From: a virus | Virus genome (UHGV): UHGV-0151084 | Direction: 5' to 3' (one strand) | DNA length: 49,280 bases | In this document: positions 2,025-38,556 of the stretch, piece after piece | How the letters are laid out: every line of letters starts with the position of its first letter | Position numbering within the stretch: position 1 is the first letter of the stretch | Notes under the pieces: generated by a model | What the model was told of the DNA's origin: nothing | The model's database searches: none | Seen by the model: only the letters and a program-made list of their open reading frames with translations | Position numbers and translations under genes: made by a program

Positions 2025-3141
2025 CCTCTAACCCCGCATACTGGCAATTTATATTTCTCTCTCTGGCGACCTGCGTCTCTCCAACTACAGTAAATACAGG
2101 ACTTGATATTTCTAATCTTTTAGCCCCGGCATTTTTTAAACGTTGAATAATTTCATCTGGATTTATATCTCTTCCCATAACCGAACGTTGCCATTGTTTA
2201 TACTCATCAAGAGCTTTCTCAACCTCACTTTGAATTAACGTTGTTCTGTTTTTGTCCGATGAGTTAATCCAGTATTTAATTATTATATCGTATTCAATGC
2301 TCTCTGGTTTCTTAACAAGAACTTTATCTGTGAATGGTCGAATATTAGTTGCAGAGAGAACGCTATTTATCTGCTCTAATAGTTCATCAGAAGGTATATC
2401 CCCGTTCTCTAACAAAGAACGGATTTCTACAGTTCCGGGCGATGGTGTATATACATTCACATCTTTTATATTCTGATTGGCTGTTCTTGTCCAATATTTA
2501 TAAGAATCCTCCGGCCCTGCTGTAGACAGTTTTTCCGGCGACAGTTTTATTCTTTCAGCATAATTATCATCTGACTCTGTATCAGCACCAGAATTAGATG
2601 TTGTTAGATTCCTTACGCTGGAAACATACGGCAACGGAGTCACCAACTCGTTTATTTGCCCAGGTAAAAATCCATTCCCCGATAAGCCAGGTATAACAGC
2701 ATATCCTGAGACTATACCAACTGTTTTCCCAGCTGGTATTTCCAACAAAACATCTGTTTGGAAAATAACACTATTTCCAGTTGAAATTTGAGTGCCAGCA
2801 GGTATTGTATATATCCCCGATAATTTTGTTGACAGATTAAACTCAAATGTAGTCAAGGCAGATTGAGCTTCCAGCCTAGGCGTATCCGTCAGATAGCCTA
2901 TATGGTCGAGATATTCACCCCCACCATATGTAAGAAGGTTTTGTTTTGCAGAAAAATCGATAGCTTTTCTTTGCTGTATAATAATCTCACACAATGACAA
3001 GATGAATAATCTACGTGGATCAGCAGGTGCTAATGTTTCACCTGTTATACTCTCAAAAGCCCTGATTGAACGAGTTGTTATATCAGTCGGGTTAGAATCT
3101 GCGAAAGTAATATCTGGCAAACCACCGCGCGGCAACGTCAT
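2017..3141 (-). CDS. Baseplate wedge protein, gpJ-like
   Basis: 374 aa ORF in conserved V-W-J-I-H order of contractile-tail phages. Confidence 0.7.
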   Translation of the reverse strand: MTLPRGGLPDITFADSNPTDITTRSIRAFESITGETLAPADPRRLFILSLCEIIIQQRKAIDFSAKQNLLTYGGGEYLDHIGYLTDTPRLEAQSALTTFEFNLSTKLSGIYTIPAGTQISTGNSVIFQTDVLLEIPAGKTVGIVSGYAVIPGLSGNGFLPGQINELVTPLPYVSSVRNLTTSNSGADTESDDNYAERIKLSPEKLSTAGPEDSYKYWTRTANQNIKDVNVYTPSPGTVEIRSLLENGDIPSDELLEQINSVLSATNIRPFTDKVLVKKPESIEYDIIIKYWINSSDKNRTTLIQSEVEKALDEYKQWQRSVMGRDINPDEIIQRLKNAGAKRLEISSPVFTVVGETQVARERNINCQYAGLEDG

Positions 3142-3458
3142 TCTCTAACTCCTATCACAAGTTTTGGCCTAATAAAACCATCAGAAACGTCCGTTCTTTC
3201 AAAAGTAACAGAATGGATAATCGCTCTAGGCTCAAACTCACTAATTTTTTGAATTATTTCTCGTGTTGCTGTAGCAATAAAAATTGGGCTAGGGCTATCA
3301 ACAAGACTTGAATTAACTCCTAATTTTCTGGCATATGGTACAGTGCCAATCTGAGTATTAATAATAGTAGAGACATTTTGCAATACTTCTTCTACAACTG
3401 TTTTGGGCGACCAATCAATCGAGTAAGAAGGTGATGATATGGTAAACGTATTATTCAT
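3138..3458 (-). CDS. Baseplate protein, gpW/gp25-like
   Basis: 106 aa, overlapping start/stop with J-like gene, position upstream of J. Confidence 0.6.
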   Translation of the reverse strand: MNNTFTISSPSYSIDWSPKTVVEEVLQNVSTIINTQIGTVPYARKLGVNSSLVDSPSPIFIATATREIIQKISEFEPRAIIHSVTFERTDVSDGFIRPKLVIGVRE

Positions 3459-3922
3459 AATAATTTACCTAACGCACTTCTAGTTTTTGACTCTATATTG
3501 CCAGCAATATCAACTAATGCTTCTTTCAGAGAGGTCTGTCCGACTTCCTGTAATTTAATGCCGACGATAATCACTCGTGGATTCCCAGTTGGACCGAAAT
3601 AAGTCCATGATTCCTCTATATCTGTAATTATAAAATTACCAAAATACTGAATACCAATTACAACAGGATTTACTTCCTGAATTGATTGCATTGTCCTAAG
3701 TAATGAAAGCGCAGCCAATGGAACAATGCCAAGTGTTGTATCCAACCGCATATTAAAACTAACTTCATCCAGATCTGGACCTATATCCTCCAGAACAGGT
3801 TTAAGCCCAATAACATCATGGCGCGCTACACGACGCTTTGACGTCCTTTTAAAATTGTTGAACGTATTCACCACTATTGATGAGGCAACAAAAGGCATTG
3901 TACCAAGCATACCCACAATCAT
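3455..3922 (-). CDS. Putative baseplate/tail protein
   Basis: 155 aa ORF translationally coupled between V-like and W-like genes; no recognisable motif. Confidence 0.35.
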   Translation of the reverse strand: MIVGMLGTMPFVASSIVVNTFNNFKRTSKRRVARHDVIGLKPVLEDIGPDLDEVSFNMRLDTTLGIVPLAALSLLRTMQSIQEVNPVVIGIQYFGNFIITDIEESWTYFGPTGNPRVIIVGIKLQEVGQTSLKEALVDIAGNIESKTRSALGKLL

Positions 3923-16828: not shown

Positions 16829-18685
16829 CTATATGGTTACGCCTTTACTTATAACTCTACGGCGTCTTCTACGTATACCTGACGAGTTCTGCACATACAC
16901 ATTACCTCGCATTTCCTGTTCGGCAAGCCAGTTAAAATTAGGGTTCAGAATTTCCATCGCGGCAGTTGCATAGTTACGGCAATCAAGAGGCTCGTTACGC
17001 TCGTAGACTTTCACCCACTTTTCTTTTGTCTGCCCATTTTTATATTCAAATATTTTCTTCTCTGATAATAATCCTTTAAAGTATTCGGTATCATATCCTC
17101 TGTCAGAATCTAATGGGAAATGCATATAACCAGGACCAGGATCATGTAGTTTAATTCTTGCCATGATGGTCCCTTTACCATCATCAACCCCCAAATTAAA
17201 CAACATAGCACCCACACGGTTATTATTACTTGGCTTTCCTATAAATGGTAAACCTACCCCACCACGCCCCCTGATAGAGTATATTCGCCTTGATTCTCTC
17301 GGCTTAGTAAAGCGATATACCTCTGTCGTAAAATGCCCACCAGAGTCAATACAAACGGAAGAAATCTGTAATTTTCGACCGTCACGGAATGACCAGCTAC
17401 GGAGTAAGTATTCATCAAGTTGTTTCCAGACAACATCTTGTGCGGGATCACCTGGGAATATTTTATATTCTATCCCCCATGACTCCTTACCTTTTCCCCA
17501 ACCGACCAATTCACAAACTAAATACGTGTCCTGTACGTCAACACCAGCACTTAACAATAAAACATCATCTGGTAAAAACTCTTCAAACCTTATTCTGCGT
17601 TGCAACAAGTATTCAGGATCGATATCGTCTTTAGCATCCTCTTTCCATGGCTCACCCAGCTTAAGGTTAATAAACTCCATTAATCCATTTTTATCGCGGT
17701 TTCTGGTTGCTTCCGCAAATTCTTCAACCAGCTCTGACAATGCAACCCACGGGGAGTAAAGACTGTTAATATGAAAACCAACAATACCTTTAACTCCAGT
17801 ATGTTCAGCTATCCATACCCCCTTCGCCAACCAATCAACGTCTGGTTTACCAGATCCGCGCATAATCCCGCCGCACTCACAGCACTCATATCTGGCCGTT
17901 TCCGGTAACGCCTCACCTGAATCGCTCTTATCCCATCTGACTTGCGACCATTTCATCACCTGCATGGTGCCACAACATGGGCAAGGAACATGGTAGTAAC
18001 GCTGATCGGAGAGCTTAAACCACTTGTGGATTTTGCTCGTTTCCTCCAAAACAGGAGTAGAAACAAAAACCTTCTTACGATTATGAAAGTTGGTAGTACG
18101 CTGAATACCTAGTTTTAGTGGGTCGCCCTCCTGCGTCACACCGTAACGATCAATCTCATCAGCTAACAGTATTCGAATTGGCCTGGATGCAAGACCTGCT
18201 GGGGAATTAGCACCAACAAGTGCTATATATCCACCAGCGTAATGCTTCATACGTATAGTCGTGCTGGACTTTTTGGCTGCACCGCGCCCCTCTTTCCCTT
18301 CATGCAGCTTGTGTTTCAAACCAGGGGAATATTTGAACGTCGGATCAATACGCTCTTTTGAAAAAGCCTCAGCCGCCTCTACCGTTGGATAAATCATCAA
18401 CTGAGGAGATGGCTCCTGATCTGCAAAGTAACCCATAACATTTAGCTGTAATTCGGATTTACCAATTTGCGAGCTACATTGCATCACTACTGTTTCTGTA
18501 TCAGCGTCACCAATAACATCCATTGGTTCACGCAAATATGGCACTCGGCTTGTACGCCACGGCCCTGGCTCTGGAGACGTTCCCGGCGCTACATGACGAT
18601 ACTTATCAGCCCATTCGGAAACAGTTAGCCGTGATTTAGGGCGAAGCGCACGGAAAAAAGCGGTGCTCCATACTGTTTCGCCCAT
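16829..18685 (-). CDS. Terminase large subunit, lambda gpA-like
   Basis: 618 aa; N-terminal TVSEWAD...PGPW pattern and size match gpA-type terminases. Confidence 0.85.
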   Translation of the reverse strand: MGETVWSTAFFRALRPKSRLTVSEWADKYRHVAPGTSPEPGPWRTSRVPYLREPMDVIGDADTETVVMQCSSQIGKSELQLNVMGYFADQEPSPQLMIYPTVEAAEAFSKERIDPTFKYSPGLKHKLHEGKEGRGAAKKSSTTIRMKHYAGGYIALVGANSPAGLASRPIRILLADEIDRYGVTQEGDPLKLGIQRTTNFHNRKKVFVSTPVLEETSKIHKWFKLSDQRYYHVPCPCCGTMQVMKWSQVRWDKSDSGEALPETARYECCECGGIMRGSGKPDVDWLAKGVWIAEHTGVKGIVGFHINSLYSPWVALSELVEEFAEATRNRDKNGLMEFINLKLGEPWKEDAKDDIDPEYLLQRRIRFEEFLPDDVLLLSAGVDVQDTYLVCELVGWGKGKESWGIEYKIFPGDPAQDVVWKQLDEYLLRSWSFRDGRKLQISSVCIDSGGHFTTEVYRFTKPRESRRIYSIRGRGGVGLPFIGKPSNNNRVGAMLFNLGVDDGKGTIMARIKLHDPGPGYMHFPLDSDRGYDTEYFKGLLSEKKIFEYKNGQTKEKWVKVYERNEPLDCRNYATAAMEILNPNFNWLAEQEMRGNVYVQNSSGIRRRRRRVISKGVTI

Positions 18686-18690
18686 GAGGT

Positions 18691-19251
18691 TTATTCTTCC
18701 TGCTTAATAAATCGGGATTCCTGGAGCGCCTGAAGCGCAAAATTAATCTCGTCTTCAATAATGCGTTCGATCTCCCTGGCTGTTTTGCCTTCACAACGGG
18801 GAGCTGCTCTTGGAGCAATACTAAATAAGCGGCTACGCAATTCATTAGCTGCCAGAAATGCATCATCCCTGACCGCATCTTTAGCGATGAGAGAGCCTTC
18901 CTTTTCTTCAAATTCAAGGCGTTTCAGCTTTGCCTGATAAATTTTTTCTGCGGTCTTAGCCTTGTTGAATTGCACCGCAACACCGGAAGTACCACCAGCT
19001 AATCCGGCATCATCAGCGGGTAACTCTGGTTGTTCCGAAGATATCCCATGCCCTCTTTTTCCATTTTCAGCAGATACCTCACGACCAACCTGTCGGCTCG
19101 CTTCATAAGCCGCACTAGCTTTATCAAAATCCAGCTTGCCGCTTTTCAGCACTGGAATGCGACCGGAACGACAGAGCTTCGTAACCATTGCCGGAGAAAT
19201 ACCTTTTCGGCGGGCAAACTCTGACTTACTGACGATGGCCATTACTTGCAA
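18691..19251 (-). CDS. Terminase small subunit, Nu1-like
   Basis: 186 aa with N-terminal HTH (SKSEFARRKGISPAMVTKLCRSGRIPV), directly upstream of large subunit. Confidence 0.65.
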   Translation of the reverse strand: MQVMAIVSKSEFARRKGISPAMVTKLCRSGRIPVLKSGKLDFDKASAAYEASRQVGREVSAENGKRGHGISSEQPELPADDAGLAGGTSGVAVQFNKAKTAEKIYQAKLKRLEFEEKEGSLIAKDAVRDDAFLAANELRSRLFSIAPRAAPRCEGKTAREIERIIEDEINFALQALQESRFIKQEE

Positions 19252-19832
19252 CCATTAGCAAGATACTGAACAAATCCCTCATGCGTTTCATGCGCGTCGT
19301 GGTACTGACGATAAACATCCAGCAACAATGCAATTTCCATATCCGTCGCGGGAATACGTTCTTTATCAATAGCCAGGTACTTAATTTGAACAACAGGGGA
19401 AGAATTATCGTCTTCTTCCTGCGGCTGTTCATCGCTTAACATTTCGTCAAGCTCTGCATCATTAAACCCAAGCAGATCAATATCAAAATCATCATCCATT
19501 AACGCTTTGACTTCTTCGGCCAGAAGCTGCATATCCCAGCCAGCATTTAAGGCCAGCTTGTTATCTGCAATCCTGTAAGCCTTCTTCTGTTTTTCAGAAA
19601 GGTTACTCAACCGAATCGCTGGAACTTTATCCATTTCCAGAATTTCGGCTGCTGCAAGCCGCCCATGCCCCGCAATCAGTTCATTCTTTTCATCGATCAG
19701 CACAGGATTAGTGAAACCGAACTCACGGATACTGTTCACCAACTGTTCAACTTGCTCATCTGAATGAGTCCGTGAATTTTTGGCGTATCTGAGCAGCTTA
19801 CCGACTGGTAAATATTCGATTTTTAGAGCCAT
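19242..19832 (-). CDS. ParB/Srx-like nuclease domain protein
   Basis: 196 aa; ParB N-terminal motifs (NSRTHS, IAGHGRLAAA); stop overlaps the small terminase start. Confidence 0.7.
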   Translation of the reverse strand: MALKIEYLPVGKLLRYAKNSRTHSDEQVEQLVNSIREFGFTNPVLIDEKNELIAGHGRLAAAEILEMDKVPAIRLSNLSEKQKKAYRIADNKLALNAGWDMQLLAEEVKALMDDDFDIDLLGFNDAELDEMLSDEQPQEEDDNSSPVVQIKYLAIDKERIPATDMEIALLLDVYRQYHDAHETHEGFVQYLANGCK

Positions 19833-20389
19833 TTTTTAACCGCCATAACACAACAGGTTAAAGAAAACTGTTTAACTTATTGATACTAAAAGAGAAAAAT
19901 GACGATCTTTTTACTCATAAAAAATCACACAAACCAGCATAATCATCTGATTTTATTAAGTTTTTATAAGTAAAAAGGATCTTGAGATGGTGTTTTGGTT
20001 AAAAGATTGGATGTATTTGCATGATTTATAACGATTTTTATCAGAACAACATCACATTGGTTAAAGATCTGCGCGTATCTTGATGATCTAAAAGAAAATT
20101 TTCTACTTTCTTTTTACCAGCACAAATACAGCAAAAAATCACGTTTTCCCGATATTTTTCAATGAGATGAGTAAATTTCTTTTACCGCAACTTTTAACCT
20201 AACTTTTTTCACGTTTAGCTAGCCGAACATCGGGGTTCGAATGACCCGCATCCAACGCTTTTGGCCAGAAGGACCCAATTCTGCCGGACGATGAAACGAT
20301 GCTCGTGCTCCCCCACAGACAGCCAGCGAGCGACGCTACAGAACACAGTGAATACACTCTGCATAACAACACCATCAACCACACGATGA

Positions 20390-21109
20390 TTAACGAGAGA
20401 AGGTCTTAGAAAGAATGTCATCAATAGCCTTTGTGACTTCATCAGCAAACGCATCCTCACCAGCACGCAGCGCCACGCCATGCCAATCAAGACGCTGCGA
20501 ATAGTTAGGTTGCTGGATAAACGTAAGGATCAACGTAGGACGCCGCCCAACGCGCTGCCAGACGCCTGGTTGAAGCGGGTTACTTGTACCAGGTCGAACA
20601 ACAAAAAACTCCGTAGGCTTGCCCTGACGGCGATTTTGATGCGCATCTCGCTGAACTCTTAGGCCAGATAAGACCTGCTGTAATTGCCCCCGCGAAATAT
20701 TCCCGTATTTGTCCAGCTTTGCGCCGGGACCAGGAGCAAGCTGCCAGCCGTTAGGCAAATATCCACCAGCCCTTAGCGCCCCTTCTGAGCGTTTGTACTG
20801 TCGTTGGCCACCTTCGATTTGCGGAGTCAACGTTACAGGGGCTGGCGTTCCTCCCCATTCACGAGCATACACAATGGCTGTAGGATCACTCTTCTTTGCG
20901 GCCAAAACGTAAGTAGAGTTCTGAATCCACGGCGTGGGCCTGTCAAATACCCGATTAATTTCATTCTTAATCGCAGCCTGAGAAGCCTTTGCCGTTCTGG
21001 TTGCCGCAAGCGCCATTGCGAACGGCAATTCGCGTTCTTCAAGGCGCTGGAGTTGTCGTTGAATATCCTGAGAAGAAAAATCCATCTTTATCTCAATTCT
21101 GTCAGCCAC
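20390..21109 (-). CDS. Hypothetical protein
   Basis: 239 aa ORF; no motif recognised. Confidence 0.4.
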   Translation of the reverse strand: MADRIEIKMDFSSQDIQRQLQRLEERELPFAMALAATRTAKASQAAIKNEINRVFDRPTPWIQNSTYVLAAKKSDPTAIVYAREWGGTPAPVTLTPQIEGGQRQYKRSEGALRAGGYLPNGWQLAPGPGAKLDKYGNISRGQLQQVLSGLRVQRDAHQNRRQGKPTEFFVVRPGTSNPLQPGVWQRVGRRPTLILTFIQQPNYSQRLDWHGVALRAGEDAFADEVTKAIDDILSKTFSR

Positions 21110-21125
21110 CAGCGCCTCCTACACA

Positions 21126-22505
21126 CTACTTAATCAACGGCCGGAAAGCCGCCAGTACATCATCAGATCGTCCGATTGTTGAACCACCAGGCAACGGCAA
21201 CTCAAACTCAAAACGAACAGCTTTCTCCAGACTCGCCCAACTAAGGGAATCATCGTTAATGACGTGCAAATACCAGCTCTTACAGTTGAATATTGACCGC
21301 TTAATCCTGAAACCATGTACACGACACAACTGCTTCACTTCCTCATCAGAGTGAAACTTCTGGTAAAACCAGTGCCCCTTCCGGTACAACGCGGTAAAAC
21401 CGTTATGATCAATAAAATAAAGCCGGCTTTTGGAACTCGCCGCTTGTGTCTGCTTCAGGACTGTTTCCAGCTCTCCACGGCTACGGCCAGAAAAGAATAT
21501 TGACCCACCAGCTTTACACAGCCCTTTCAGAACCGTCAGAACGGACCATTCAGCCTCGACACTATCGACCGAGTTCAAAACGCTATCGCAAATCACGTAG
21601 TCGTAACGCCCTCGCGTTTTTAAGTCGTCCACCAGCGTATCAATCATCCGGTTTGTTGCGGTCCTATCCAGAGTGTTTCCAGCGCCCTTACGGCGGAAAA
21701 GCTCAAGATCATGCAGGTTATATCCCTTTGCCCTGAGCATTCGCGCGTAGTCTCCCTGACCCGAACCAAAATCAATTCCTCTTGGCGTCTTGGCAATGAT
21801 CGGGAGGATCAACGACTCATACAGGTTTGATTTCAGGCTGCCACCATTACGCAACCGCATAAGCTGCGCATACGTCTGGATGTATGTTGTTTTCTCCAGA
21901 TGAGAATACTCAAATACACCATAAGTTTTATTCAGATAACTTTGGTATTTTTCCTTCTCAACATCAGGGATCACAAACACCGTTAGCGGTGTGCGCGTCA
22001 TCTTCGCTGCTAATGCATACTGAGCACAGTGAATAACCTCGCCAGACTGAGTAGCAACACAACCACCCCACGGACCATACTTGATAACCAGTTCCGCTAT
22101 GTTCTTTCGAACATATGCCATTTTCGCGCGCATATTGCCTGAGATCTGGCTTGCCGATACCTGAACAAAACCATGCTTATCTTCCAGACCGGACACCCTG
22201 CAACGCTCATCTCCGCTGTCAAAATCCGTTCCGTTATGCAGTTGGTTAAACCGTACTTCGTCGTATACCGTCGTTTCACAGGGCAACACATACACCGCAG
22301 CACGCGTTATTCCCAACTTACGTAGCGCCTTCGTCCTTTGGTGTCCCGCCACCAGCAAATCGCCGCGCACTATCAATGGCTTCACAAGCCCCAGCTCCCT
22401 GACGCTTTCCGCCAGCCTCGCAAGATCATCCTCACCGATAAAACGCGGGTTATATTCCGCGCCGCGTAGGTGCGTTATGTCGTAATTCAGGTGAAGCATC
22501 AGCAC
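21126..22505 (-). CDS. ParB-like N-terminal domain fused to class I SAM-dependent methyltransferase
   Basis: 459 aa; N-terminal ParB motif (LLVAGHQRTKAL); C-terminal half with SAM-binding motif IDFGSGQGDY and DYVICD. Confidence 0.7.
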   Translation of the reverse strand: MLMLHLNYDITHLRGAEYNPRFIGEDDLARLAESVRELGLVKPLIVRGDLLVAGHQRTKALRKLGITRAAVYVLPCETTVYDEVRFNQLHNGTDFDSGDERCRVSGLEDKHGFVQVSASQISGNMRAKMAYVRKNIAELVIKYGPWGGCVATQSGEVIHCAQYALAAKMTRTPLTVFVIPDVEKEKYQSYLNKTYGVFEYSHLEKTTYIQTYAQLMRLRNGGSLKSNLYESLILPIIAKTPRGIDFGSGQGDYARMLRAKGYNLHDLELFRRKGAGNTLDRTATNRMIDTLVDDLKTRGRYDYVICDSVLNSVDSVEAEWSVLTVLKGLCKAGGSIFFSGRSRGELETVLKQTQAASSKSRLYFIDHNGFTALYRKGHWFYQKFHSDEEVKQLCRVHGFRIKRSIFNCKSWYLHVINDDSLSWASLEKAVRFEFELPLPGGSTIGRSDDVLAAFRPLIK

Positions 22506-23122
22506 ACCTCCCCTGCCAGCAATGCGGATACAAATCCGATATAGCTGCCATTATCATCAACATAACGAGATACCGCGCAGTCAAAACGATCCGCTTCCTC
22601 ATCCGTTGCCGGGATTTTATGACCTCCAAATGACAGGTACTGAACTTTTACGCCTGATTTGGCCTCATCCTTCTCAAATGGGATATCCATACCTTCTGTG
22701 TCATCGTAGACCGCCGCACTCAATAAGTTATCCAGTTCGCGCTGAGTAAAACCAATTGAGTCCAGAGCAAAATCATCGGCCGCAAGATCTGCAAGCTCCG
22801 CGCTTAACAACTCTTCATCCCAACCAGCATTCAGCGGAATACGGTTGTCGGCCAGACGATATGCCTTCTTCTGATTCTCCGTTAGCCCTTCCAGAACAAT
22901 GCAGGGAACATCATCCATCCCCAACTGAGTGGCCGCAGCAATTCGACCATGACCAGCAATTACAACGTTGCTTTCGTCTATCAGGATCGGATTAGTCCAT
23001 CCGTACTCCTGTATGCTGGCAACAATCTGATCTACCTGCTCCACGGAGTGTGTGCGAGCGTTCTTTTCATAACCAATCAACACAGAAAGTGGTAAAGAAA
23101 CCACATTAAGATGTTTTGTCAT
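22499..23122 (-). CDS. ParB/Srx-like nuclease domain protein (paralog of 19242..19832)
   Basis: 207 aa; clearly alignable to the 196-aa paralog (ARTHSVEQVDQIVASIQEYGWTNPILIDE, IAGHGRIAAA). Confidence 0.7.
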   Translation of the reverse strand: MTKHLNVVSLPLSVLIGYEKNARTHSVEQVDQIVASIQEYGWTNPILIDESNVVIAGHGRIAAATQLGMDDVPCIVLEGLTENQKKAYRLADNRIPLNAGWDEELLSAELADLAADDFALDSIGFTQRELDNLLSAAVYDDTEGMDIPFEKDEAKSGVKVQYLSFGGHKIPATDEEADRFDCAVSRYVDDNGSYIGFVSALLAGEVC

Positions 23123-23768: not shown

Positions 23769-23966
23769 AACATCACCTGAAAATAAAAAGCCCCGCGACA
23801 CCGCGAGGCTGTAAGAGTTACTTTCGATAGAAATCAAGGCGCATTTGCTCCCGCTTAAGCCGAAAAGCTCTCTGCGCCACTAAGATGCGCCACAGGACAC
23901 CAGCAATAACCACCAGCGAGATACAAAAACACACGGCCACAACCATCAGAAAAATGCAAAGACCAT

Positions 23967-24456: not shown

Positions 24457-24530
24457 CCCATGTTCTCCTTTGTCTGGATGTAAAAAAGCCCCGGCAATTG
24501 CCGAGGCTCGTTGTTCGTTATCGTTACGGT

Positions 24531-24997: not shown

Positions 24998-25115
24998 CGG
25001 GTTATCTCCGGTTTAGCCAGGGCGGGTATCGCTCGGTTTCGGGTATAACCATAGGAAATTTTTTCCCACCTGTAAAGCAATTTTTATATAAATATATAAT
25101 TATATAATTCTATGC
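24998..25115 (-). promoter_or_regulatory. Repeated promoter/leader module, copy 1
   Basis: About 105 bp near-identical to 32517..32640 and 42106..42225; contains TTTACA, AT-rich palindrome and conserved leader ending in RBS. Confidence 0.6.
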
Positions 25116-25697
25116 CACTTGCCAGAGAGCATCATGCAACTGGATACCTCCATTGCACTGGTTGCCCCAGCCATGCCAGCCATCAGGTAAATCACCGCGA
25201 GCAAACAGCTCAATACGGGGAACATCACCTAACAGCCTTACCAGCTTGTCACGAACCACATCAGGCTTCCGAGAATGCTCCAGACGAGGCGATGTAAACG
25301 ACTGAATGATCCCCGCATCAAGGCGGGTCGGCAGTTTGCCTTTTACCGCAAACAAGCAATCTTCACTGTTTGCACGAGTCATATGCCCCATCCCCATCAC
25401 CAGCTTATCTGGTTGTCGGCTACCACATTTGTTCCATGTGAAGCCCTTCATGGTCATCAGCCTGAATCCCCATGCTTTCACCACCAGCAACGCTTCTTCT
25501 GGCTGAGTCGGAACCCACCACATGGCCAACAAACACGATTCAGGATTAGCAAGCTGCCAGACAGGAATACGAGCAATATCCTCAGCTTTCATCGTTGGAT
25601 ACTTAAAACCAGCGCCACGATTCCCATCCTTACACTTGTCTTTGTATTCCCAGGGGGGATCTGCATAAATCAGATTAAACAATGCAATTGCCTCCAT
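25110..25697 (-). CDS. MT-A70 family N6-adenine DNA methyltransferase
   Basis: 195 aa; catalytic DPPW motif (LIYADPPWEY). Confidence 0.8.
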   Translation of the reverse strand: MEAIALFNLIYADPPWEYKDKCKDGNRGAGFKYPTMKAEDIARIPVWQLANPESCLLAMWWVPTQPEEALLVVKAWGFRLMTMKGFTWNKCGSRQPDKLVMGMGHMTRANSEDCLFAVKGKLPTRLDAGIIQSFTSPRLEHSRKPDVVRDKLVRLLGDVPRIELFARGDLPDGWHGWGNQCNGGIQLHDALWQVA

Positions 25698-26016: not shown

Positions 26017-26092
26017 TGGTGGCCCCTACCGGATTTGAACCGATGACCGTGCGATTATGAGTCGCCTGCTCTAACCACTGAGCTAAGGGGCC
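26017..26092 (-). tRNA. tRNA with anticodon CAU (tRNA-Ile2 / Met-type), CCA encoded
   Basis: Minus-strand 76 nt GGCCCCTTAGCTCAGTGGTTAGAGCAGGCGACTCATAATCGC...GGGGCCACCA folds as cloverleaf; acceptor, D and anticodon arms match the enterobacterial tRNA-Ile2 pattern as I recall it. Confidence 0.85.
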
Positions 26093-36460: not shown

Positions 36461-36484
36461 ACCAAACACATGGAGTCTCGACAA

Positions 36485-37138
36485 ATGACTATCTCTGTAG
36501 GTATTTTCAACGGAAAAGGCGGCGTAACCAAATCAACAATTGCCCGTGCTTTAGCAGTTGCTTATGCAAAGGCCGGCTGGAATGTATGCCTGATCGATAT
36601 GGATGTGCTTAACGGAACGGTAACGCGTTGGGTACAACGCAGAATGGCCAACAATATCGAACCTGCAATCGCGGCGCAGCCGTGCGGCACGCCATCACAA
36701 GTCCAGAAAATCATCGAATCAGAAGTATACGACCTGGTTATCGTCGATGGCGGTGCCTACGCATCTGAATCAGTACCGAAGCTCTCTGAATTTCTGGATA
36801 TGGTTATTTTGCCAACCAGATTCTCTACCGATGACCTGGAAACCACCGTTAACACAGCTCATGGCATCGTTAAAAAGGGTGTGCCAATCAAGAAAATTTG
36901 CATGGTGTTCTCAGGCGCGGCTGAAAACGAAGCCGACTACATTGAAGCCCAAGAGTACCTGGCTAATACGCCATACTTTGTTGTCGATAAGTACATTCCC
37001 CACAAGCCAGCTCTGAGCAAAGCTCAGGATAAGGGCTTAAGCCTCATTGAATGCTCATACGTTGCGCCACGCAAAAAGGCAGACGACGTTATTCAGGGGA
37101 TTATCAACCAGCTTGAGGCTCTGACTACTGCCGCGTAA
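36485..37138 (+). CDS. parA: ParA-family partition ATPase (small, type Ib-like)
   Basis: Deviant Walker A GKGGVTKST; start placed at ATG 36485 with GGAG RBS. Confidence 0.8.
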   Translation: MTISVGIFNGKGGVTKSTIARALAVAYAKAGWNVCLIDMDVLNGTVTRWVQRRMANNIEPAIAAQPCGTPSQVQKIIESEVYDLVIVDGGAYASESVPKLSEFLDMVILPTRFSTDDLETTVNTAHGIVKKGVPIKKICMVFSGAAENEADYIEAQEYLANTPYFVVDKYIPHKPALSKAQDKGLSLIECSYVAPRKKADDVIQGIINQLEALTTAA

Positions 37139-37181
37139 TATATAATTATAGTTTTATAGATTTATATAAGAGGGGATACAC

Positions 37182-37430
37182 ATGGCCGCACCATCAAAAC
37201 CACCAAAGAAGAACAGCAAAGGCGTACCGCCATCGATCGAACAACCGCAGGTTTTCGACCCGACTGAAACGCCAGCCAGAACCAAATCAGGTGGGGCACA
37301 AATGGCGTTTAACGTCGACCCTGAATTTAAACGCGAGTACAAAACGTTCGCCAGCTCAATGGATATGTCATTGAAAGAAGTGCTGACAAAATCTTTTGAG
37401 TTACTCAAGGCTCAATACAACCAGAAGTAA
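37182..37430 (+). CDS. ParG-like ribbon-helix-helix partition protein
   Basis: 82 aa, basic disordered N-terminus and C-terminal RHH-like segment, directly after parA. Confidence 0.5.
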   Translation: MAAPSKPPKKNSKGVPPSIEQPQVFDPTETPARTKSGGAQMAFNVDPEFKREYKTFASSMDMSLKEVLTKSFELLKAQYNQK

Positions 37431-37652: not shown

Positions 37653-37676
37653 AAAAAAGGCCCCCGAAGGGGCCTA
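37653..37676. terminator. Hairpin terminator (GGCCCC-CGAA-GGGGCC) with A/T runs
   Basis: Perfect 6-bp GC stem; T-run on minus strand. Confidence 0.55.
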
Positions 37677-38096
37677 ATCGCTACTTGCTGCTAATGTTTA
37701 TCGTCACATTCAGAGCGTTATCAGTAATCTTCCAACCCTCCCCATGTGGCGTAAACAAAGCTCCAGTAACAACGATAAAAATACACATACAGTATTTTTT
37801 CATTGTATGGCCCTTACAGGCCGTTTCACGGCATCCCCACCGACGAAAACAACGCGAGAGCAAGCACGGCTGCTTGTGCTTGCATGTACGGCAACAGGAA
37901 ATCCTCCCCTAAAGTCGGTGCCCGGGTGCGAATCGGCGGGAAGGTCCACAGGTATTTTACGATTATTTTAAGATTAGTAATAGGAAAGAAATTAAACGAA
38001 AAAAACAGTTTATTTTCACAAAATCAGTAACCTACCCACAATCTGTGAGTTTGCTGACACAACAAGAACCACAATTTTTTGATGTATAATAGTGGA

Positions 38097-38291: not shown

Positions 38292-38396
38292 TGAATGCGC
38301 CATTGGTGGACACTTTCCGAGCCGTAGCAAAATCTACGGTCGGGATTAGCCTCCTGAATAACACGATGGCGCATACCGCGTTAGCGGTTTTTTTAT
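38292..38396 (+). ncRNA. Candidate structured RNA upstream of antirepressor operon
   Basis: TTGAC at 38286, internal hairpin CCGTAG/CTACGG, terminator ACCGC-GTTA-GCGGT + T7; shares GATTAGCCTC with the downstream leader. Confidence 0.3.
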
Positions 38397-38556
38397 GCGT
38401 AGAGCACTGTTACGCCCAAATTATGGTGGGTCGTACAGGGGCGGAGAAATCCGCGCCGGTTCGTCATTGTGTCCGGTAAGGCTAACCCTGTACGGCTCAC
38501 CACCATTTGATTAGCCTCGAATGGCGGTGATAGTTCCATATACTGGAGATATCACA

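Follow-up and report, generated by a model that had tools for sequence, protein, structure and literature searches.

The window analysed here, the 49,280-nucleotide UHGV virus genome UHGV-0151084, carries three genes for proteins with ParB/Srx domains next to its terminase genes, and one of the three encodes a 459-amino-acid (aa) protein in which ParB/Srx domains are joined to a class I S-adenosylmethionine (SAM) methyltransferase. Here, we present a computational analysis of this region, covering the domain structure of the fusion, the short ParB proteins encoded beside it, their occurrence in other viruses and bacteria, and a probable cos site that lies between the genes. The fusion is accompanied almost everywhere by a short ParB, and we modestly favour a role for the pair in which phage DNA would be methylated ahead of packaging.

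Genes at the locus

Every gene of interest lies on the minus strand, within a single-strand gene run that extends from 27203 to 16829. ParB207 (22499..23122) encodes a short acidic ParB/Srx protein of PHROG 620 and is the upstream member of a two-gene cassette completed by the 459-aa fusion (21126..22505; PHROG 5475), a protein of three domains whose start is placed by RefSeq at the ATG at 22499. It is followed by the gene for a 239-aa basic protein, p239 (20390..21109; PHROG 1924), and no further gene lies between it and the probable cos site. The first gene after this site is ParB196 (19242..19832), encoding a second short ParB/Srx paralogue, and then come the small terminase gene TerS (18691..19251; PHROG 57; likely ATG at 19244) and the large terminase gene TerL of the lambda gpA type (16829..18685; Pfam GpA_ATPase E 7e-76, GpA_nuclease E 1e-84). 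The same stretch of genes also holds a separate, conventional DNA methylase at 25110..25697, an MT-A70-family DNA adenine methyltransferase with a DPPW motif (Pfam E 3e-23).

The stop codon of ParB207 overlaps the start of the fusion gene (TGATG) and that of ParB196 overlaps the start of TerS (TAATG), and to judge from these junctions both short ParB genes are translationally coupled to the gene that follows. The initial annotation of this DNA, made by a model from the letters and a list of open reading frames (ORFs), had placed the four ORFs and the MT-A70 gene and had noted that ParB196 overlaps the terminase gene; all of this was confirmed. It had also already set the MT-A70 enzyme apart from the fusion.

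Domain structure of the 459-aa fusion

The fusion matches phrog_5475 ('unknown function') over its full length (E 2e-265) and Pfam Methyltransf_23 (PF13489) with 32.6 bits across residues 233-400, so the ParB/class I methyltransferase fusion proposed in the initial annotation stands, and a second, cryptic ParB/Srx domain is now added to it. More than 716 homologues of a constant length of about 460 aa were found, nearly all of them with precomputed Pfam matches to both PF13489 and PF02195. An alignment of 29 homologues (45-73% identity) contains about 80 invariant columns distributed over all three parts of the protein, and the AlphaFold2 model of the fusion has a predicted local distance difference test score of 92 and a predicted template modelling score of 0.88. 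Based on the invariant motifs and this confident model, the protein is divided into a ParB/Srx domain, a degenerate ParB/Srx domain and a methyltransferase.

Domain 1 (residues 1-95; 22221..22505) is a ParB/Srx domain with invariant N19, R21, S34 and A53-G-H-Q-R57, the last including the box II arginine. Domain 2 (residues ~101-195; 21921..22205) has a cryptic ParB/Srx fold with invariant W146-G147, H159 and Q162-Y163, and has no arginine at the GxxR (box II) position; this middle part of the fusion is nevertheless strongly conserved, with NQLHNGTD, WGG and YGxF motifs in addition to H159 and Q162-Y163. Domain 3 (residues 233-459; 21129..21809) is a class I SAM methyltransferase of the Methyltransf_23 family, with the motif I sequence D245-F-G-S-G-Q-G, an acidic residue after beta 2 and the seven-strand fold of this class. 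Invariant in this domain are motif I (DFGxG), E268 and the post-beta-4 residues D307-x-V-x-N311-S312-x-D314, which suggest that the methyltransferase is an active enzyme. The initial annotation had named absent catalytic motifs as a ground for abandoning its proposal, and the SAM-binding motifs turned out to be invariant across the family.

When 1.84 billion representatives were searched with residues 101-459, only 423 clusters were recovered, nearly all of them of 450-490 aa and with a match beginning near residue 100-130. The three-domain architecture is obligate, and the family stands isolated from other methyltransferases. The fusion is basic, with an isoelectric point (pI) of 9.2 (family median 8.8), and its middle and catalytic domains are both basic.

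The short ParB proteins

Against a Pfam ParB_N cutoff of 26.3 bits, ParB196 scores above the threshold (33.6 bits), and ParB207 (25.6 bits) and the fusion (24.3 bits) fall just below it. The doubt raised by these scores is removed by the profile matches to phrog_5475 and to phrog_620, the latter covering both short ParBs over their full length (E 1e-74 and 1e-73), and matches in the PDB to ParB/Noc/Spo0J support the ParB fold; the three ParB/Srx genes of the initial annotation are therefore upheld. Over their first ~145 residues, both short ParBs further match phrog_498, which represents the ParB end of phage DNA-methyltransferase fusions (E 1e-50 to 1e-52), and both proteins match PADLOC MTase_II. 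ParB207 and ParB196 are about 48% identical, in agreement with the paralogy claimed for them earlier.

The box II motif GxxR reads GHGR in both short ParBs and GHQR in domain 1 of the fusion. Across the short-ParB family, N19, G55, R58 and N91 are invariant and R21 and S34 are nearly so, and the proteins are laid out alike, the nucleotide-binding domain being joined through an acidic linker to a C-terminal domain that is also conserved. They are acidic, with a pI of 4.3-4.6 (ParB207 4.3), and the net charge over the central 55 residues is -14 to -17. Pfam detects no helix-turn-helix (HTH) family in any of the three ParB/Srx proteins, and the ParA-interaction motif (L/F/I)G(K/R)G(L/F/I) is absent from all three. 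With TIGR00180 they score 40.1, 30.5 and 16.4 bits against a cutoff of 58.45, and these matches cover the N-domain only.

A conserved two-gene cassette upstream of terminase genes

We collected 80 viral loci, forming 37 clusters at 80% identity, and 78 bacterial loci. A family profile search located a short ParB directly upstream of the fusion and on the same strand in 36 of the 37 viral clusters, the remaining cluster having 225 nucleotides (nt) of upstream sequence only. The same arrangement was present at 72 of 77 bacterial genome loci, where in 67 cases the short ParB gene stops no more than 40 nt from the start of the fusion. Among the bacteria that carry the loci are Enterobacterales, Alphaproteobacteria, Pirellulaceae, Myxococcales, Chloroflexales, Bacillota, Streptomyces, Kitasatospora, Bacteroidaceae and Kiritimatiellae. 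ParB207 and the fusion thus form a near-obligate, transferable two-gene cassette. Two close relatives of the window retain p239, ParB196, TerS and TerL (79-91% identity) without ParB207 and the fusion, which makes the pair an accessory cassette and shows that ParB196 persists in its absence, together with TerS and TerL.

In about 26 of 35 clusters, the large ORF that comes first downstream of the fusion encodes a large terminase (gpA 9, Terminase_6 9, Terminase_3 4, Terminase_1 3, T7-type domain 1), and in about four more it encodes a portal protein. For the loci found with ParB196, the large ORF downstream is a terminase in at least 48 of 51, drawn from the same four families. A position just upstream of the terminase is accordingly a general property of this ParB clade, independent of the packaging mechanism.

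The 239-aa gene stands outside the conserved cassette. It is kept in the relatives that do not have ParB207 and the fusion, and together with the second ParB gene it is confined to close relatives. Its product matches phrog_1924, labelled 'minor tail protein', a label that comes from the PHROG and record annotation and for or against which we have no evidence; no match was found in Pfam, NCBIfam or PADLOC. Homologues with 30-39% identity are encoded at the extreme end of the record in many, not all, of the listed Pseudomonas siphophages (F10, MD8 and JBD68 types).

Modification enzymes accompanying the short-ParB clade

Among 79 ParB196-like ORFs, 41 are long forms of 394-528 aa, phage proteins to whose N-terminus the ParB module of ParB196 is 50-61% identical over ~140 aa. 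Forty of the long forms were aligned, and outside the ParB module they consist of a beta-class N6/N4 DNA methylase with an invariant PPY (consensus DPPY) and an FxGSG consensus. For 30 short forms, the products of the genes directly after the ParB include Mom-family proteins (9), TET-associated DNA glycosyltransferases (TAGT; 5), N6_N4 methylases (3), C5 methylases (2), Tet_JBP (1) and P-loop+GNAT proteins (3-4). One short-ParB clade is thus paired with at least five unrelated families of DNA-modifying enzymes at the same slot upstream of the terminase, and this company is a strong argument, by association, that the gene after the short ParB has a role in DNA modification. The slot of the window is reproduced at one locus of the collection, L118, in which a homologue (68%) of p159, the product of the upstream 159-aa gene, is followed by ParB, effector, TerS and TerL, the effector here being TAGT.

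Two observations on the loci of this clade are recorded in their own right. At L118 (4827..9302) and at L093-L098, a ParB of 262-316 aa is followed by the TET-associated glycosyltransferase, TerS and TerL, with no TET/JBP gene adjoining, and at L093 the prophage seems to begin at the ParB gene, beside the host trkH gene. The P-loop+GNAT proteins, of ~360 aa and combining a P-loop/ABC-type ATPase with a GNAT acetyltransferase, follow short ParBs at L090, L133, L141 and L167 and could be another, undescribed ParB-partnered effector that acylates DNA; the match to both parts is direct for L090 alone, and the other three are assigned through identity to L090 and family counts.

Probable cos site

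The intergenic gap between the 239-aa gene and ParB196 measures 557 bp (19833..20389) and holds the probable cos site. Three records of Yersinia phages are linearised within it, two at 20247|20246 and one at 20235|20234, and these breaks lie precisely 12 nt apart, flanking GGTCATTCGAAC (20246..20235, minus strand), which we take to be a 12-nt cohesive end. The ends are read from the termini of the three GenBank records, which are flagged circular, and not from mapped ends; a literature search found no paper on these phages (vB_YpM_39, 41 and 44) and no end-mapping data. Together with sequence conservation, the record breaks point to a probable cosN core, GGGTCATTCGAACCCCG (20231..20247, minus strand). 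The block GGGTCATTCG(A/T)ACCCCG is partly symmetric and occurs a single time in the window, and the cosN-core block is the best-conserved part of the intergenic region in the relatives L012 and L015, whose proteins are 57-90% identical to those of the window.

Between this core and ParB196 lies an AT-rich, cosB-like region (19856..20199) with four CTTT(T)AACC repeats, compared with three in the other 49 kb of the window. The small terminase or an accessory protein may bind to these four repeats, and TTAACC-type repeats are present in L015 too. An Rfam scan of the gap found no RNA family. Given the gpA-type terminase, the gap is probably a lambda-type cosN/cosB site with a 12-nt cohesive end. 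It would then split the module: in the virion DNA, the right end would carry ParB207, the fusion and p239, and the left end would carry ParB196, TerS and TerL. The initial annotation had put the ParB/Srx genes directly upstream of the terminase, a description that holds on the circular map and probably fails for the packaged molecule, where cos would part ParB207, the fusion and p239 from the other three genes.

Two variants of the region were observed. Yersinia phage vB_YpM_44 is without 88 bp (window 20019..20106) of the AT-rich cosB-like region, the deletion junction sharing 2 bp, and the stretch of repeats from cosN to the first gene thus varies in length. In the close relative L088, the intergenic region with the probable cos site, between the p239 and ParB196 homologues, has an insertion of an IS605 OrfB/TnpB (Cas12f-like) gene (2753..3922, minus strand).

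Host element and other features

The window is an approximately 48-kb Escherichia coli phage-plasmid. The 4.4-kb region under study is 99% identical to a plasmid of strain ATCC 25922 and, at the same identity, to Escherichia phage vB_EcoM-613R2 and the three Yersinia phages; plasmids of ~48 kb with a 99% match to it are present in 74 of 5,426 complete E. coli genomes. The annotation of the ATCC 25922 plasmid includes RepA and ParA, a toxin-antitoxin pair, a gpA terminase, and phage head and tail genes, the head being lambda-like and the tail contractile; the element is therefore a phage-plasmid. A plasmid partition locus, separate from the three ParB/Srx genes, lies on the plus strand at 36470..37430 and consists of a 222-aa ParA (36470..37138), ~13 kb from the ParB/Srx genes, followed by an 82-aa ORF, whose product, not a ParB, is probably the plasmid centromere-binding protein.

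Within the gene run from 27203 to 16829, no convincing promoter was found, and the promoter and terminator scans overall performed no better than on shuffled sequences. Two strong intrinsic-terminator hairpins (24509..24486 and 23810..23789, minus strand), with GC-rich stems of 9-10 bp followed by T runs, stand upstream of the ParB207 cassette inside the same-strand run and would fit antiterminated read-through of a late operon. A single tRNA gene at 26017..26092 (minus strand) is called tRNA-Met (anticodon CAT) by ARAGORN and tRNA-Ile by RefSeq on the ATCC 25922 plasmid homologue, and it may be a phage-borne lysidine-type tRNA-Ile2. Rfam matches above the gathering score comprise isrK (65.7 bits) and C4 antisense RNA (70.8 bits), at 38321..38507 (plus strand) and 37653..37949 (minus strand), just upstream of a 422-aa ORF with a homologue annotated as an ORF6N-domain protein; with a further match to ryfA (143.5 bits), they suggest a P1/P7-type antisense-RNA immunity region in the phage-plasmid.

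Interpretation and alternatives

The association described here is real and not a product of chance. As its best explanation we propose, at somewhat better than even odds in our judgement, a late-expressed, ParB-assisted methyltransferase that marks phage DNA before packaging, probably by an unconventional chemistry. Modification is favoured because the short-ParB clade is nearly always the neighbour or the fusion partner of a DNA-base-modifying enzyme, and because there is an experimental precedent in the thymine dioxygenases. In that system, a short phage ParB without a DNA-binding domain is required by its cognate dioxygenase, 5mYOX, on double-stranded DNA, the pairing is specific to cognate partners, and terminases rank with the most frequent neighbours (O'Toole et al., PNAS 2026; PMC13229309).

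By analogy with the phage ParB/5mYOX pairs, ParB207 would activate the fusion, or load it, on double-stranded phage DNA, and ParB/Srx domain 1 of the fusion would bind a nucleoside triphosphate (NTP). The fusion would then methylate the DNA after replication, late in infection and shortly before packaging, such that the progeny genomes would carry a protective mark, which is probably other than m6A, m4C or m5C. The DNA substrate, the activation by ParB207, the late timing and the protective role are all points that we infer. Self-methylation, one of the options that the initial annotation had left side by side, likewise keeps the standing of a proposal: it gains from the neighbours of the clade and from the precedent, and loses from the lack of DNA-methyltransferase motifs in the fusion. 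As ParB196 is kept without the cassette, it may serve another modification enzyme in trans, e.g., MT-A70, or have a packaging-linked role.

A bolder version of this proposal, which we put forward tentatively and hold to be more doubtful than not, is that the double-ParB methyltransferase represents a new class of DNA-modifying enzyme. In such an enzyme, a ParB/Srx pseudo-dimer, together with the acidic short ParB and NTP, would gate a small-molecule-type methyltransferase onto phage DNA, the mark would be none of m6A, m4C and m5C (e.g., a methyl group on a ring nitrogen, an oxygen or a phosphate, or on a pre-existing modification), and ParB196 would connect the terminase to this ParB logic.

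Several points weigh against DNA modification by the fusion. The motif IV (D/N/S)PP(Y/F/W) is present in none of the 29 fusion family members, although the same approach recovered its positive controls, i.e., DPPW in the MT-A70 enzyme of the window and the invariant PPY (consensus DPPY) in the ParB-beta-methylase fusions. The C5 motifs PC(Q) and ENV were likewise not found in the fusion family, nor was there any DNA_methylase Pfam match. The best structural matches of the methyltransferase domain, at 11-18% identity, are Trm9, METTL6, TehB, UbiG and glycine N-methyltransferase, so that the domain looks like an enzyme for small molecules or tRNA and cannot be recognised as a DNA methyltransferase. 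The association with DNA modifiers concerns the short-ParB clade and not the catalytic domain of the fusion, late expression is read from gene order, and the retention of ParB196 in relatives without the cassette leaves at least one of the three ParB genes outside the cassette model. Even in the precedent the role of the nucleotide is obscure, since ParB mutants in the NTP pocket still activated the dioxygenase (PMC13229309).

The absence of DPPY and C5 motifs from the fusion would be expected of an enzyme whose substrate is not DNA but, for example, a nucleotide (a signalling nucleotide included), tRNA or another RNA, or a phage or host protein, and which acts in counter-defence or host takeover, with the ParB/Srx domains binding or presenting a nucleotide-like substrate. 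The ParB/Srx fold does serve small-molecule and protein enzymes too (sulfiredoxin, SerK, SbnI), and anti-defence roles, with cyclic nucleotides, NAD and SAM as possible ligands, have been proposed by Kaljevic et al. (PMC12704722). We nevertheless regard such a substrate as unlikely, as the partner ParB clade is otherwise tied to DNA-base modifiers of at least five superfamilies, a fixed site beside packaging genes is atypical for early counter-defence, and the basic middle and catalytic domains suit a nucleic-acid substrate.

A role as packaging accessories, which we rate as less probable again, is suggested above all by ParB196, which comes first after the probable cos site, is coupled to TerS, and is kept with TerS and TerL where the cassette is missing. 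The ParBs would bind or nick near cos or pac, or contact TerS, and so aid recognition, cutting or loading by the terminase, in analogy with the HNH proteins that aid HK97-type terminases, and the target of the methyltransferase would be DNA close to cos or a packaging protein. The place of the clade just upstream of the terminase in at least 48 of 51 loci fits this idea, as do the cosB-like repeats as candidate binding sites and a Bacillus cereus prophage ParB-methylase, encoded near terminase genes, which nicks DNA in a non-specific manner (PMC3592412, PMC5512222). Set against this, both the clade and the cassette precede four mechanistically different terminase families, of cos and headful type, which speaks against partnership with one particular kind of terminase, the short ParBs are strongly acidic and without HTH, and the neighbours of the clade are modification enzymes rather than packaging proteins. 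A gpA-type terminase such as that of lambda, moreover, cuts cos by its own nuclease domain. A packaging role would concern mainly ParB196.

That the ParB paralogues are centromere-binding partition proteins of a plasmid prophage, an option also entertained in the initial annotation and in line with the RepA and ParA of the element and with a deposited phage record that labels the genes 'chromosome (plasmid) partitioning protein', is highly improbable and was rejected as essentially excluded, given the missing HTH and ParA motif, the TIGR00180 scores below cutoff, the separate ParA and partner, and the presence of the same genes in bacterial-chromosome contigs of several phyla beside terminase-sized downstream ORFs.

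Under the preferred explanation, ParB-assisted DNA modification, the cassette would carry the logic of ParB assistance over to a methyltransferase unlike any known DNA methylase. If DNA is indeed the substrate, the modification is likely to be chemically new, with a bearing on restriction evasion and on the sequencing of phage DNA. The 99% identity to the ~48-kb plasmid makes these predictions directly testable in ATCC 25922.

Comparison with known systems

Two elements of this account were known before, namely the fusion architecture (Kaljevic et al., PNAS 2025; PMC12704722) and ParB-dependent DNA modification for thymine dioxygenases (O'Toole et al., 2026). Between them, these two studies established that ParB-fold proteins have roles well beyond chromosome segregation. 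For the 459-aa family, the present analysis shows in addition that there is a cryptic second ParB/Srx domain, that a short ParB is a near-obligate partner, and that the genes lie upstream of the terminase. The survey of Kaljevic et al. lists ParB-CTPase + Methyltransf_23 (PF02195+PF13489) as a phage- and prophage-enriched fusion of unassigned role, giving no function, partner or synteny for it, and the 459-aa protein is a member of this architecture, with both domains in one chain and encoded by a phage or prophage. The same study reports ATP binding in some bacterial ParB-SAM-methyltransferase fusions, which are not shown to belong to the 459-aa family. A paper on a plasmid single-strand methylase (PMC7736820) was also considered and does not concern ParB fusions.

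The closest functional parallel is the 5mYOX176/ParB176 pair, in which a DNA modifier adjoins a short HTH-less ParB that, like those described here, begins with a nucleotide-binding domain and continues through a helical segment and a linker to a C-terminal domain; the C-terminal domains are likened by description. The pocket residues N14, R16, S29 and R56 of ParB176 correspond to N19, R21, S34 and R58 in the short ParBs of the window. The effector differs in kind: 5mYOX176 is an Fe/2-oxoglutarate dioxygenase, whereas the effector described here is a SAM methyltransferase that itself contains two ParB/Srx domains, and its activity and dependence on the ParB are predictions.

In terms of the ParB module, the nearest relatives of ParB196 and ParB207 are the PHROG 498 fusions of ParB with a beta-class N6/N4 methylase, which also lie directly upstream of terminase genes. 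Those fusions hold a conventional DPPY amino-methyltransferase in the same chain, whereas the short ParBs of the window are free-standing, with a C-terminal domain of their own, and the enzyme belongs to a different methyltransferase class.

Finally, the terminase region resembles the lambda cos module in several respects: TerL is of the gpA type, TerS has an HTH-like region at its N-terminus, the cosN-like core is partly symmetric and would give a 12-nt cohesive end, and AT-rich repeats lie between this core and the first gene. Unlike in lambda, with its Nu1 and gpA, a ParB/Srx gene is placed between the cosB-like region and the TerS gene and appears to be translationally coupled to TerS.

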